The notes beneath the pieces were generated by a model. It made no database searches. It worked only from the letters and a program-made list of their open reading frames with translations, and had not been told where the DNA came from. Position numbers and translations under genes: made by a program. Positions 1,925 through 6,264 of a stretch of DNA of 64,000 bases are shown piece by piece. The DNA comes from a virus. The first letter of the stretch is position 1. Every line of letters starts with the position of its first letter. The stretch lies in the UHGV virus genome UHGV-0072281. One strand, 5' to 3'.

Positions 1925-4165
1925 ATGAAAACGCCAGTTGAGCTATTGAGCAGCGTCGCTGACCGTGAAGTCAATATCGCACAGGTATCAGGTGCAAGGG
2001 CATCGATGGTAGGTAACCATATGAAGTCCTCGGTCCCGATTGACCATCCTGAGCCGTCACCTCACTTTACGGGCGCAGATACCAATTACCACGATTTTCT
2101 GTTTAACGATATTGTGGAAGACAGTGGGAGCATCTGTCATTACACAACTAAGGAAGGTAGACAACGTCGTGCAACGTTTACCCGTTATGGTCGTCGTGGG
2201 GATTCCCGTGCGCTGGAACACGCGATATTCTTCCGTCGTGCAGAATGCCGTATTCCGGGCAAAACAATGATAGACGTTATCGAGATTAACTTTTATACTA
2301 ACCACGATAACGTGTTCTCTTCTGAGAAATGGGAATCACCAAAACTGCGTAGTTTGTTACGTGGTGAAACCGACCAGTTAGAAAAGGATGAAATCCTGAC
2401 GACGATGCCGTGCATGGTGGATGGTGAATTCGCAGACAGTGTGGTGCTGCCGACGGTTACCATCTCACACCCAGACATTATCGAGGATTCCTACACGATT
2501 TCCGAAGAAGCGGCACAGAAGCTTCACGGGTATGGGTTGAAGGTTATCGAGAAAACGTTGCGTGAAGACGAATTCTTACTGGATACCTACGGCTATAACG
2601 ATCCCGAGGGGAATCGTGTACCGCGCTATTTCCCAGACGTGGGTGAAGCGATTCGTGATGACGGGTTAGTTATCGCTTCTCGTCGTTTCGATGACCTGTA
2701 CGCAGCGATTGATGCAACCTTAGGGGAAACTCAACACGTTTCTCCGTTCTTCGATAGCTGTGATTACGTGGATGCCGATCCGATACACTATAAAGCACGT
2801 TTGGAAAACAACCACGAACTGATGGAACGTAGCGGAACGCGCATTGTTGATATTCAGGTTTGGCGTGATGAAACGTCGTGCGGTAATGGAACGAATAACA
2901 TTAACTGTACTGAAGAGAACAAACGTGAGCTTGACAAATACGCATTGGCGTTAAAGGACTACTACAATGCGATTGTTCGCTTCTATTTCTCCGTGTCGAG
3001 AGATAAAAACGTTATCTGGTCTCCCAAAGCGTGTGTGTTGCTGGAGAAAGCTTTTGCATCCGAAACGTACGAAGTCTACGCAGAGTTTCGTGAAGAAATT
3101 CGCGGGGTGATTGAAGATGCAATTCGTCGTGGCGAATACGGTAAAGAGAACGTAAGTCAACAGATTATCTCCAAATTGACTTCACCTGTTCAGCGTGGAT
3201 TAAGCGATCCCATCAATACGTACACAATTCGTATCGCGGTACGTTATCCGATCCCGGTGACGGTGTCTTCTAAGATTACCGACCGTTCGGGTACGAAAGG
3301 GATTGTGGGTCGTGTACTGCCAGTTGAACAGATGCCAATTAACGAGTTCGGCGAACGTGTTCACGTACTACGTTCAATGAACGCCGTAATTCGTCGTTCT
3401 ACCTACGCCGCGCTGTTCCACATGTATTGGTCAGCAGCATCTGAACAGCTGAAGATGCGTCTTAAACCGATGCTGGATGAAGGACGCATTGGTGAGTGTT
3501 GGGAAATCCTGATGGACTACCTTTCACGCTATAATCCAGAATGGGCGAACACGTTACAGGCTACGCATCCTACGGAGGATTTGCAGCGAGAACTCTTTAA
3601 AGAGATTTACGATTTCACCATCCGCATTTACCTACCTCACGAACTTGATGACACTCCGGTGGAAATCAGTGAACGTTTAGGTGAGTTTAAACCCCGTAAG
3701 TCGAAACTGCTTATTACCAATTACGATGGTAAACAGGAATGGACAAAAGACGAGTTTTACGTGGGTGGTGTAGAAACATTACGGCTTGATAAAACGGGAC
3801 GTGAATTCTCAAGTATTTCGTCGATGTACCTGAACTACCTGGGCACGATCGATGCGTCTAACCAAGGACGTGGTTCGTATCCGGTAAACTATAAAACGCT
3901 AAAATGGGCTGGTCCTTCGGAAGAACGACTATTAGCGGGTTATGGTCCAGGTAACTACGAAGAGGTTCACGATAGGGCAAATAACCCTGCTGTGCATCGA
4001 GAGATTTTAGTAGGGCTGTACCGATCTCAAACTCCTTCCAATCCGGGCGTACTGGTAGACCGGAATAAGCTCCCATTAGGAGATTCGCAGATTGACAGAA
4101 TGATGAAAAACATTCACAGCTGCGAAGGGTTTGAATTGGTGAAAATGAAAAGGGGCGAAGAATAA
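1925..4165 (+). CDS. multisubunit RNA polymerase beta-subunit-like protein (C-terminal portion of a split beta)
   Basis: 746 aa; AAAGGAG SD; motif SSKITDRSGTKGIVGRVLPVEQMP resembles conserved bacterial beta motif GDKxAGRHGNKGVxSKIxPxEDMP; immediately followed by beta-prime-like gene (rpoB-rpoC order). Confidence 0.55.
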   Translation: MKTPVELLSSVADREVNIAQVSGARASMVGNHMKSSVPIDHPEPSPHFTGADTNYHDFLFNDIVEDSGSICHYTTKEGRQRRATFTRYGRRGDSRALEHAIFFRRAECRIPGKTMIDVIEINFYTNHDNVFSSEKWESPKLRSLLRGETDQLEKDEILTTMPCMVDGEFADSVVLPTVTISHPDIIEDSYTISEEAAQKLHGYGLKVIEKTLREDEFLLDTYGYNDPEGNRVPRYFPDVGEAIRDDGLVIASRRFDDLYAAIDATLGETQHVSPFFDSCDYVDADPIHYKARLENNHELMERSGTRIVDIQVWRDETSCGNGTNNINCTEENKRELDKYALALKDYYNAIVRFYFSVSRDKNVIWSPKACVLLEKAFASETYEVYAEFREEIRGVIEDAIRRGEYGKENVSQQIISKLTSPVQRGLSDPINTYTIRIAVRYPIPVTVSSKITDRSGTKGIVGRVLPVEQMPINEFGERVHVLRSMNAVIRRSTYAALFHMYWSAASEQLKMRLKPMLDEGRIGECWEILMDYLSRYNPEWANTLQATHPTEDLQRELFKEIYDFTIRIYLPHELDDTPVEISERLGEFKPRKSKLLITNYDGKQEWTKDEFYVGGVETLRLDKTGREFSSISSMYLNYLGTIDASNQGRGSYPVNYKTLKWAGPSEERLLAGYGPGNYEEVHDRANNPAVHREILVGLYRSQTPSNPGVLVDRNKLPLGDSQIDRMMKNIHSCEGFELVKMKRGEE

Positions 4166-6264
4166 TGAAGGCGACTCCGGTTCACGTAAGAGACTTGTGC
4201 AAGTTGAATTCGGATCAGGTGTGGCTACTTCGGGGCGTTTACGACGTGTCCTTCGACGATGGGGTCACGTTGAGAATGTCTGGTCGACACATTAAGTTGA
4301 GCTGGCCGTATTGGGGATTAACCCAGTTTTATCCCCAAGTGCCAATCTCGTCGAACATGGCGTATAAGCATGGCGACACGGCAACTGACGATGCGCATCT
4401 GCGCTTTATGTCGTTGGCAGCTGTAGCAGCACGTAAGGCCGGAGTGGATCTGGCCGATACCCGTTACCTGTTATCACAGCACGTTTATGCGAATGCGTTT
4501 AACCTGACGGTGAAAAACCTGTTGTCGTATTGTGTTACCATTGACTACGATACGATGATGGAGATTTATCAGCATGAAAACTTCAAGCTGATTATCGAAT
4601 GGTCTAAACTCTATCCGACGGGTTACGATGAGGAGGGTAACGATAAGGTAGAAGAAGCCTATCAGCTCATTGAGAAAATCTTCAAAGATCCGAGACTCTC
4701 AAACAACCCAGTCGTCATGTCTGTGTTAGACCGCACACTGAAAATGGATCAGATTCTCCAGGCTTACATTCGTGGTAAGACTTCAGAGATTGACTCCCGT
4801 GTGTACTCTAACCAGGTATGGGAAGGTTTCTTCACCGGCTTGCATTCTGTTATCAGTCGACTGAAAGAAGCAGGTGCGACATCGCGTTCTCACCTGTATA
4901 ACACCGACAAGATTGCAGACGCAGAGTACGCATCGCGTAAGTTGCAGTTAGCGGCTAACGTGCTGATGTTCTTCGATTACGAAGACTGTGGTACACATCA
5001 CGTACACAGACACACCTTTACGAATTCGCCGTTGGAAGAAGCGAAATTCAAAGCGATGAAAGGAATGCGTTATCGCTTCGAAGGTACTGGTGGTCCGTGG
5101 TTACGATTCGAAGATGGTGAGTTTGAGAAAGTCTTGAACAAACCTATCGAGTTCCGTACCGCGATGTGTTGCAAAGGAATGTCACGACAGACTATCTGTG
5201 CAACGTGTATGGGTGACTTGATTTATAACCTGTCACCTGGCACATCGCCGGGTCACCTTGCGTCAACCGCAATCTCGGAAAAGGGTACTCAAGGTATTCT
5301 GTCGACGAAACACCTTGACTTCCTGCGTTATCTGCTGAACTTGGTCTTGTCGCCAAGAATGCGTGATTATCTCACGGAGTATAAGCACAACTCCGTTAAA
5401 GGGATTAGTTTACTGGAGAAGCCGCAATACGGTACCTGGGATGAATACCAACTAGTAATTTCGGATGAAGTGTATTCAGAGATTAGCCAGATTGCGTATC
5501 ATGAAGACCTGGACGATATTGATGAAACGGCACTCCCGGAAATTAATGACCTTACGTTTGTTCGTTTAGATGCAGAAGGGAATATACTGGCAGAAGATCC
5601 GATTGACGTTCGAATGGGCGTGTGCGGTAACTTCTCTAAGTCGTTCCTTCGCTTCTTCTTGAAGAATCGTGATAAGCTCGTATTCCCCAGCAAGAAAACG
5701 GTGCGTGTTCCGCTAAAAGGATGGAAACCGTCCTGGCCGATCCTAATTTATACGAATCGGTCTGAATCTATGGCGGAGTTTGTAGCAGGGTTGGAATTGA
5801 TTTTACGTTCGGTAGCATCGGACAAGTCAGATAACTTCGAACAGTTCTCGGACGAGTCAATGCGTTTGAGCAAGAAGAGTGGTAAGGTTAAACCGATTAC
5901 CCTCGTTCAGATGCGTGGTGCCACGGAGAAACAATGTACTCATGCGTTGTTCTACGTGTTCAAATATATCCAACGTAAGCTCAAAGGGATTCCGATGACG
6001 CACATCGCGATTATGTTGGCAATCTCTCGTGTTGAGTCACCTACTAACCCATTCCCGGCAGTAGGGTTTGACAGTGAGGATGCTGATGCCGCAGAAGGAA
6101 AACGTTTCGAAGATCACAATACGCTGATTGCGATGCGTTCTGCAATTCCGATGTTGTTGTTTGAGGGACAACAGAAGAACTTGGACAACGTACGTTTCTA
6201 TACGTCACGTAAACGTCCTGCTTCGTTGTACGACAATTCTGTCGCGGCAACGATTATTGAGTAA
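4165..6264 (+). CDS. multisubunit RNA polymerase beta-prime-like protein (C-terminal part: bridge helix, DCGT, trigger loop)
   Basis: 699 aa; ATGA start/stop overlap with upstream gene; FFDYEDCGTHH resembles E. coli beta-prime TEDDCGTHEG; CCKGMSRQTICATCMGDL...AISEKGTQGILSTKH resembles CDTDFGVCAHCYGRDL...[15 protein letters not shown]. Confidence 0.75.
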   Translation: MKATPVHVRDLCKLNSDQVWLLRGVYDVSFDDGVTLRMSGRHIKLSWPYWGLTQFYPQVPISSNMAYKHGDTATDDAHLRFMSLAAVAARKAGVDLADTRYLLSQHVYANAFNLTVKNLLSYCVTIDYDTMMEIYQHENFKLIIEWSKLYPTGYDEEGNDKVEEAYQLIEKIFKDPRLSNNPVVMSVLDRTLKMDQILQAYIRGKTSEIDSRVYSNQVWEGFFTGLHSVISRLKEAGATSRSHLYNTDKIADAEYASRKLQLAANVLMFFDYEDCGTHHVHRHTFTNSPLEEAKFKAMKGMRYRFEGTGGPWLRFEDGEFEKVLNKPIEFRTAMCCKGMSRQTICATCMGDLIYNLSPGTSPGHLASTAISEKGTQGILSTKHLDFLRYLLNLVLSPRMRDYLTEYKHNSVKGISLLEKPQYGTWDEYQLVISDEVYSEISQIAYHEDLDDIDETALPEINDLTFVRLDAEGNILAEDPIDVRMGVCGNFSKSFLRFFLKNRDKLVFPSKKTVRVPLKGWKPSWPILIYTNRSESMAEFVAGLELILRSVASDKSDNFEQFSDESMRLSKKSGKVKPITLVQMRGATEKQCTHALFYVFKYIQRKLKGIPMTHIAIMLAISRVESPTNPFPAVGFDSEDADAAEGKRFEDHNTLIAMRSAIPMLLFEGQQKNLDNVRFYTSRKRPASLYDNSVAATIIE

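Follow-up and report, generated by a model that had tools for sequence, protein, structure and literature searches.

A 64,000-nt stretch of the virus genome UHGV-0072281 (the window; coordinates are positions in it unless another sequence is named) carries two adjacent forward-strand open reading frames (ORFs) that almost certainly encode the C-terminal beta and beta-prime subunits (beta-C and beta-prime-C) of a jumbo phage non-virion multisubunit RNA polymerase (RNAP; the non-virion enzyme, nvRNAP). ORF1 (1925-4165, +) has an ATG start and encodes 746 amino acids (aa), and ORF2 (4165-6264, +) has an ATG start and encodes 699 aa. Split beta and beta-prime genes had been proposed at these positions in an earlier note made from the sequence letters; both ORFs were present in the ORF listing, and every motif quoted in that note was recovered from the translations. 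The TAA stop of ORF1 and the ATG of ORF2 share one base (TAATG, 4163-4167), and a stop/start overlap of this kind is the usual arrangement for translational coupling. A Shine-Dalgarno sequence, AAGGAG (1912-1917, +), lies 7 nt 5' of the ORF1 ATG and was conserved in an alignment of the upstream regions.

Beta and beta-prime C-terminal genes

ORF1 matched PHROG 3295 ('RNA polymerase beta subunit') with an E value of 1e-254, residues 1-743 aligning to positions 8-693 of the 698-position profile. The Pfam domain RNA_pol_Rpb2_6 was also present (E 1e-5; 25.3 bits against a curated gathering cut-off of 23.4). Among PDB chains, ORF1 matched phiKZ gp71-73 (7OGP_C, E 1e-30) over two stretches, 115-354 and 428-738, as well as the AR9 nvRNAP chain 7S00_C (E 4e-16, phmmer), and about 30 bacterial beta chains were matched directly around the GDK...EDMP segment (E ~1e-5). 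By local blastp, ORF1 was 76.7% identical over its full length to gp51 of Erwinia phage Asesino and 70.7% identical to gp34 of Salmonella phage SPN3US; the phiKZ counterpart was found as two pieces, gp71 and gp73. These alignments identify ORF1 as the orthologue of phiKZ gp71-73, SPN3US gp34, and Asesino gp51.

The ORF1 segment SSKITDRSGTKGIVGRVLPVEQMP (3266-3337, +; residues 448-471) is the counterpart of the bacterial GDKxAGRHGNKGV..EDMP element and corresponds to the active-site segment of the beta double-psi beta-barrel. Within it, K450 and K458 stood opposite K386 and K394 of phiKZ gp71-73 in an ungapped HMMER alignment. The phiKZ residues are the conserved DNA-contacting lysine pair of the beta double-psi beta-barrel (PMC8287921).

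ORF2 matched PHROG 3015 (E 8e-222) and, over residues 7-556, the phiKZ gp74 chain 7OGP_D (E 7e-33). The AR9 nvRNAP chain 7S00_D was matched at E 6e-4 by phmmer and at E 1e-12 with a profile (A1) made from four aligned sequences: ORF2, Asesino gp52, SPN3US gp35, and phiKZ gp74. The same profile reached residues 718-937 of the Escherichia coli beta-prime subunit (E ~2e-6), in an alignment spanning the bridge helix to the trigger loop. Identities by local blastp were 74.7% to Asesino gp52, 73.0% to SPN3US gp35, and 24% to phiKZ gp74 (E 5e-39), with ORF2 residues 8-690 (of 699) aligned to gp74 residues 8-668. ORF2 is thus assigned by homology as the orthologue of phiKZ gp74 and SPN3US gp35.

The functional elements expected of a beta-prime C-terminal subunit were located in ORF2 by alignment. 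The bridge-helix equivalent VISRLKEAGATSRSHLYNTDKIADAEYASRKLQLAANV (4849-4962, +; residues ~229-266) was mapped from phiKZ gp74 L242-Y279 (PMC8287921), and in the A1 profile alignment this stretch fell on the bacterial GYLTRRL bridge-helix segment. Four cysteines, C275, C336, C345, and C348 (4987-5208, +), were invariant in A1 and correspond to phiKZ gp74 C288, C341, C350, and C353, which form the zinc site of the phiKZ nvRNAP (PMC8287921); they mark a predicted Cys4 zinc-binding site. The trigger loop/helix equivalent TSPGHLASTAISEKGTQGILSTKH (5242-5313, +; residues 360-383) aligned to gp74 T365-V383 and to bacterial beta-prime, and it ends in H383, invariant in A1. The earlier note had read bridge-helix/DCGT and trigger-loop signatures in this ORF from the strings YEDCGTHH, CATCMGDL, and AISEKGTQGILSTKH, all found in the translation. 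That reading was borne out, with the DCGT and CATC strings now placed within the span of the zinc site, downstream of the bridge helix, and with the trigger segment aligned.

The weakest resemblances were those to cellular enzymes. Identity to bacterial beta and beta-prime was low and limited to ~80-200 residues, and the Pfam domain Rpb1_5 stayed below threshold for ORF2 (E 0.13), as would be seen if the motifs matched by chance or if the ORFs were recently captured fragments of host rpoB and rpoC. Against this stand the full-length matches to solved phage nvRNAP subunits (E 1e-30 to 1e-33) and the presence of ORF1 and ORF2 homologues in 252-278 phage records from many host genera. Recent capture from a host is excluded because the divergence from host genes is so deep, and by these scores the resemblance to RNAP is far beyond chance; an origin by chance or capture has a negligible probability. 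The earlier note had made its proposal depend on RNAP similarity in profile searches, and the PHROG, Pfam, PDB, and A1 matches were significant. Together with the orthologue matches they substantiate the identification of the two ORFs as split beta-C and beta-prime-C genes.

Both genes were compared with those of four relatives of ~98% nucleotide identity. Each comparison gave 25-46 synonymous and 1-3 non-synonymous differences, and the ratio of non-synonymous to synonymous polymorphism (pN/pS) was 0.006-0.023 across both genes and 0.006-0.022 for ORF1 alone. Ratios this low indicate that ORF1 and ORF2 are functional, tightly constrained genes under strong purifying selection. In one related locus (L007) beta-C looks disrupted, but the break coincides with 63 N in a scaffold of low coverage and was put down to an assembly gap.

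The constraint bears on how the relatives are filed. Genomes 98-99% identical to the window have been deposited as circular plasmids, NZ_CP173450 (221,873 bp) and NZ_CP134650 (222,441 bp), with E. coli 98232 (urine, Egypt) and Enterobacter ludwigii (gull cloaca) as hosts, and the annotated genes in the regions fetched were all called hypothetical. The E. coli record moreover annotates ORF2 37 codons shorter. These records would suit a reading of ORF1 and ORF2 as decaying or non-functional relics on a bacterial plasmid. The pN/pS of ~0.01-0.02 and the intact catalytic residues oppose it, and both the window and its relatives have genes for a major head protein, for internal head and virion structural proteins, and for a split DNA polymerase, which makes them jumbo phage genomes. 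Two papers also read such contigs in bacterial assemblies as persistent or carrier-state lytic jumbo phages (PMC12768965; bioRxiv 10.1101/2024.12.31.630880). Relics are accordingly most improbable, and functional nvRNAP genes remain the preferred reading.

The shorter ORF2 annotation reflects a different choice of start codon only. In NZ_CP173450 (L004:8352-10340) the beta-prime-C gene starts 37 codons late and yields 662 aa, while the 37 upstream codons have an identical translation that is homologous to the N-terminus of phiKZ gp74. The full 699-aa reading is preferred on account of these intact, homologous codons; the alignment marks the shorter form as a start-codon miscall without truncation.

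Non-virion and virion polymerase genes

All window ORFs of 150 aa or more were scanned against PHROGs for RNAP genes. Two were found besides ORF1 and ORF2, at 12221-13522 and 45022-46797, and there were no others among the ORFs scanned. The gene at 12221-13522 (+) encodes 433 aa and matched PHROG 2962 (E 3e-169), the family of the virion beta-prime 'middle' subunit. Its protein was 77.2% identical to Asesino gp59, 71.8% to SPN3US gp42, and 27% to phiKZ gp80 (E 3e-46). A PDB sequence search with this protein returned no match, and the assignment was made through PHROG 2962 and blastp instead. SPN3US gp42 is the virion beta-prime 'M' subunit and was detected in virions (PMC5105663). By these similarities the gene is the orthologue of SPN3US gp42 and phiKZ gp80 and part of a second, packaged polymerase.

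The gene at 45022-46797 (+; GTG start, 591 aa) encodes the predicted beta N-terminal subunit (beta-N) of the nvRNAP, the partner of ORF1, ~39 kb downstream of it. The whole protein matched PHROG 2943 (E 1e-170), and phiKZ gp123 (7OGP_E) was matched in two stretches (E 1e-17). The gene follows the major head gene at a distance of ~1.2 kb; in SPN3US, gp77 is placed just after the capsid gene. By homology it is the orthologue of phiKZ gp123, and by position the counterpart of gp77, which is the nvRNAP beta-N gene of SPN3US (PMC5105663).

Jumbo phages related to phiKZ encode two such polymerases. In phiKZ the nvRNAP is made of gp55, gp68, gp71-73, gp74, and gp123 and the virion enzyme of gp178, gp149, gp180, and gp80 (PMC8287921); the virion set of SPN3US is gp241/gp218/gp240/gp42/gp244. 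The earlier note had left the window genes open to both types. ORF1 and ORF2 could in principle be subunits of the injected virion RNAP (vRNAP) that transcribes early genes, since both phage polymerases are built of split beta and beta-prime, the PHROG label 'RNA polymerase beta subunit' is the same for all, and ORF2 had a weak secondary match to PHROG 2962 (E 6e-5). The best matches, however, were phiKZ gp71-73 and gp74 and SPN3US gp34 and gp35, all of the non-virion set, and neither ORF had a virion subunit as its best match. The virion beta-prime piece is the separate 433-aa gene at 12221-13522. The split pattern of the virion enzyme was likewise not seen: in SPN3US the virion beta is divided into an N-terminal piece of ~1400 aa and a C-terminal piece of ~220 aa (PMC5105663), which a 746-aa beta-C does not fit. 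ORF2 also aligned with gp74 nearly to the C-terminus, and its SPN3US orthologue gp35 is the nvRNAP beta-prime subunit carrying the C-terminal conserved regions a17-a20, which are missing in the virion beta-prime M (PMC5105663). A virion role for the two ORFs is therefore very unlikely.

Gene order agreed with the non-virion assignment. A gp70-like gene, a small reverse-strand gene, beta-C, beta-prime-C, and a helicase gene, followed further on by gp79-like, gp80-like, and DNA polymerase genes, occur in the same order in the window, phiKZ, Asesino, and SPN3US, except that the small reverse-strand gene is absent in phiKZ. On this sequence evidence the set is specified further as non-virion and not virion.

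The gp70-like gene (123-1502, +) is homologous to phiKZ gp70, whose product localises to the nucleus and has no known function. Its tail (codons ~385-459, nt ~1275-1499) is a low-complexity stretch of ~70 aa rich in G, S, and F that contains 12 FG/GF dipeptides and recalls the FG repeats of nucleoporins; in relatives the tail is likewise of low complexity but of another composition, G/L/S-rich in Asesino and SPN3US and M/Q/N/P-rich in phiKZ.

The earlier note had observed that no NADFDGD catalytic motif lies in the window and had placed the N-terminal parts of both subunits elsewhere. A six-frame regular-expression search of the whole window likewise found no NADFDGD. Taken to mean outside the window, the second statement held for the beta-prime N-terminal subunit (beta-prime-N), which is encoded outside the window, and failed for beta-N, which is encoded inside it at 45022-46797. 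The sole DxDGD string in the window, AADVDGD (18170-18190), was rejected as a chance occurrence because the ORF that holds it (17735-19408) belongs to PHROG 8131, a family of unknown function, and had no RNAP match in the PDB.

The sequence to the left of the window was followed on a metagenome scaffold (ENA ERZ28570145 BAEC15-1_..._scaffold_25, 226,156 bp; L008) whose 11,502-base overlap with the window showed 100% identity. The beta-prime-N gene lies there at L008:148-1515 and 1866-2105, 7.8-9.7 kb upstream of window position 1. The beta-prime-N genes of Asesino (gp40) and SPN3US (ACQ60_gp243) are found ~11 kb upstream of beta-C and read NGDFDGD. A candidate for the fifth subunit, a gp68-like gene, is syntenic and lies 1.6-3.3 kb upstream of the window (L008:6616-8244); its protein was 66.7% identical to Asesino gp47. 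All five nvRNAP genes (beta-N, beta-C, beta-prime-N, beta-prime-C, and, with weak support, the gp68-like gene) are thus present on the source scaffold and window. For the product of the gene that directly precedes the window (L008:8278-9981), homology to phiKZ gp69 (Imp1/PicA) was considered and set aside, as blastp found no similarity and the position alone corresponds.

In both L008 and the Enterobacter 'plasmid' the beta-prime-N gene was called as two ORFs of 499 and 83 aa. Between them lies a group I intron (Rfam RF00028) of 350 nt (L008:1516-1865; also L005:3709-4058), 8.0-8.4 kb upstream of window position 1; its Rfam score of 59-64 bits exceeds the gathering score of 50 (E ~1e-13). A related metagenome contig, L007, holds an intron-less allele that reads SDRVIKAPNADFDGDQLQV, i.e., NADFDGD, and blastn of this allele on L008 broke at 1515/1866. 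The intron is therefore an ORF-less element of 350 nt, inserted exactly where the NA codons meet those for DFDGD. The 1515/1866 junction (535 aa when intron-less) had been among the in-frame U...G splice candidates listed before the L007 allele was known. A search for ORFs containing NADFDGD, which the earlier note had recommended as a check, would fail on this genome because the intron parts NA from DFDGD. Scanned in full against Rfam at gathering thresholds, the window had no match, so the RNAP genes inside the window contain no introns or known RNAs.

Introns 70-73% identical to this one occur in the same gene of several Seoulvirus isolates, and an intron in a jumbo phage RNAP gene is a known kind of feature: according to the legend of Figure 7 in PMC5105663, RNAP subunits of the phages compared there contain introns and a homing nuclease. 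Since the intron is polymorphic and an intron-less allele exists, it might act as more than a selfish insert and gate the level of active nvRNAP, a role we regard as a long shot. If it did, the beta-C and beta-prime-C products would stand idle until splicing supplied their catalytic partner, and throttled middle and late transcription would favour the carrier state of hundreds of bacterial isolates.

Predicted expression signals and assembly

The 63-nt gap before ORF1 contains a promoter-like element, GAGATAGATATTATC (1881-1895, +), 30 nt upstream of the beta-C start codon. This block was invariant in the window, Asesino, and SPN3US, while the flanking bases varied. The core 13-mer GATAGATATTATC had six copies in the window at two or fewer mismatches against 1.2 expected, and none of 100 shuffles reached six. 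A second copy with one mismatch, GATAGATATTATT (43890-43902, +), occupies the gap between the major head gene and the unit comprising the gene at 44001 and beta-N, and in L008, Asesino, and SPN3US (three genera) the gp68-like gene has the same motif upstream. The nvRNAP genes of phiKZ are transcribed early, by the injected virion RNAP, from promoters rich in A and T (PMC10914365), and by analogy GAGATAGATATTATC is probably an early promoter read in the same way. A scan for sigma-70 promoters performed no better than shuffles (12 sites against 11.6 expected), the outcome anticipated for a phage independent of the host polymerase.

Further sites were recorded upstream of the window. The conserved element, written GAT(A/T)GAT(A/T)TTATC, was present at L008:6567-6578 and 7978-7989, with matching sites in the loci L001 and L003. 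One of its positions is inside the 3' part of the gp68-like gene, before the gene at the phiKZ gp69 (Imp1) position, in three genera. A different AT-rich repeat, TTTCAGATATATATTACTTA(A/G)GTGAGA, had two intergenic copies in the window (29118-29188 and 37373-37443, +) and may represent a second promoter class.

Three nucleotides after the ORF2 stop, a terminator-like hairpin (6267-6288) with a 9-bp stem containing six G-C pairs is followed by a T-run (6267-6298, +). This was the top-ranked site of a terminator consensus scan and is the probable 3' end of the beta-C/beta-prime-C transcript.

Homology to the solved phiKZ enzyme suggests how the two products would act. ORF1 would supply the beta-side double-psi beta-barrel with its two lysines contacting DNA and RNA, and ORF2 the bridge helix, the trigger loop, the Cys4 zinc site, and the C-terminal clamp-hinge regions. 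The two would assemble with beta-N, with beta-prime-N carrying the Mg-binding NADFDGD, and with the gp68-like fifth subunit into a five-subunit enzyme lacking alpha and omega. Such an enzyme is predicted to be insensitive to rifampicin and to transcribe middle and late genes in the phage nucleus. Both genes would probably be expressed early from one transcript that starts at GAGATAGATATTATC, is translationally coupled through TAATG, and ends at the hairpin. Direct observation covers the homology, the conservation of residues, the constraint by selection, and the occurrence of all five genes; that the subunits assemble, when they are expressed, that the motif is a promoter, and that virions lack the enzyme are carried over from phiKZ, AR9, and SPN3US. 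According to PMC4666361 and PMC8287921, the phiKZ nvRNAP is absent from virions, made early, resistant to rifampicin, and responsible for middle and late transcription, and the products of ORF1 and ORF2 are by that analogy expected to be absent from virions.

Several points weigh against this reconstruction. The label 'non-virion' derives entirely from orthology, and the promoter function of the motif from conservation and recurrence; no copy of the motif occurred within 90 nt upstream of the beta-prime-N gene. The total of terminator sites in the region was not above the shuffle expectation, which leaves the position and stem strength of the hairpin as its support. The gp68-like assignment is weak, at 19% identity to phiKZ gp68 (E 1e-9, in a blastp database of 30 sequences).

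Relatives, lineage, and other genes

The phiKZ nvRNAP (PDB 7OGP, 7OGR, 8QUE, and 9RJS) has the same five-gene set and the same split points as found here. As in phiKZ, beta-C and beta-prime-C are adjacent, with a gp70-like gene before and a helicase gene after, and the lysines, bridge helix, trigger loop, and Cys4 residues are kept; identity to phiKZ, by contrast, was only 20-26%. Unlike phiKZ, where gp71 and gp73 are parted by a segment with the gp72 gene, beta-C is one uninterrupted ORF here and lacks the phiKZ intron and HNH gene; 'HNH homing endonuclease' is the annotation of the gene under this match in some phiKZ-like isolates. The intron of the window lineage is instead in the beta-prime-N gene, upstream of the window, and is an ORF-less group I intron. 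Bacillus phage AR9 is a much more distant relative, with both ORFs matching the beta-like and beta-prime-like chains of its nvRNAP (PDB 7S00). Promoters with template-strand deoxyuridine are recognised by AR9 (PMC9209446), whereas nothing here suggests a genome containing uracil.

The closest orthologues from isolated phages were gp34 and gp35 of SPN3US (Seoulvirus) and gp51 and gp52 of Asesino (Erskinevirus), at 71-77% aa identity over the full length. These share with the window genes their lengths, the stop/start overlap, the neighbouring genes, and the upstream motif. At the nucleotide level identity to SPN3US and Asesino was only ~72%, a genus-level divergence, and megablast against 50,697 phage records (August 2025 collection) found nothing closer than ~72% for the two genes, so the window does not represent a known isolate. 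The nearest isolates at that level were Erskinevirus Asesino and Stratton, phiEaH2, and Seoulvirus relatives. A split beta/beta-prime RNAP is a hallmark of phiKZ-like nucleus-forming jumbo phages and a textbook feature of Chimalliviridae. The earlier assignment to a phiKZ-like jumbo phage was upheld by the phiKZ, SPN3US, and Asesino orthologues and the shared gene order.

Clusters that contain the exact proteins have 181-378 members each, which come from assemblies of Salmonella, E. coli, Shigella, and Enterobacter and lie on ~220-250-kb contigs. One of the two papers on persistent jumbo phages (PMC12768965; bioRxiv 10.1101/2024.12.31.630880) puts forward a new genus, 'Bapsvirus', with genomes of ~220-249 kb that share synteny with Seoulvirus and occur in Salmonella, E. 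coli, and Shigella; the term 'RNA polymerase' is absent from the main text of both. These 'Bapsvirus' or Seoul-like phages, on contigs of ~220-226 kb, belong to Chimalliviridae, have limited nucleotide similarity to Seoulvirus despite the synteny, and are distributed like the exact proteins of the window. Set beside the published description, the size, Seoulvirus synteny, and host distribution of the window lineage agree with 'Bapsvirus'; the window fits that description and is a candidate member of this Seoulvirus-like lineage, for which chimallin is a further criterion.

The finding is correct but ordinary, and knowledge of how these enzymes work is unchanged by it. Its significance lies mainly in annotation: the exact proteins have been deposited many times as 'hypothetical protein' and near-identical genomes as plasmids, and a complete nvRNAP set with a virion subunit marks such records as genomes of nucleus-forming jumbo phages. 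By analogy with phiKZ, transcription of these phages is expected to be independent of the host polymerase. A divergent member (~72% nucleotide and 71-77% protein identity) is also added to a family used for the study of minimal RNAPs without alpha and omega.

Other replication and metabolism genes in the window included a DNA polymerase piece (PHROG 3011; 14093-15988, -), a DnaB-like helicase (39421-40983, -), a dihydrofolate reductase (30755-31291, +), a RuvC-like resolvase (55521-56165, +), and a DprA-like protein (59586-60152, +). An open frame of 685 aa with a TTG start (41702-43759, -) runs antisense through nearly all of the major head gene (41534-43819, +) and is probably not a gene but a side effect of codon usage. 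Three paralogues of the internal head protein family PHROG 2497 were present (26434-27705, 27786-29048, and 60324-61457, all +), two of them in tandem and the third 31 kb away.

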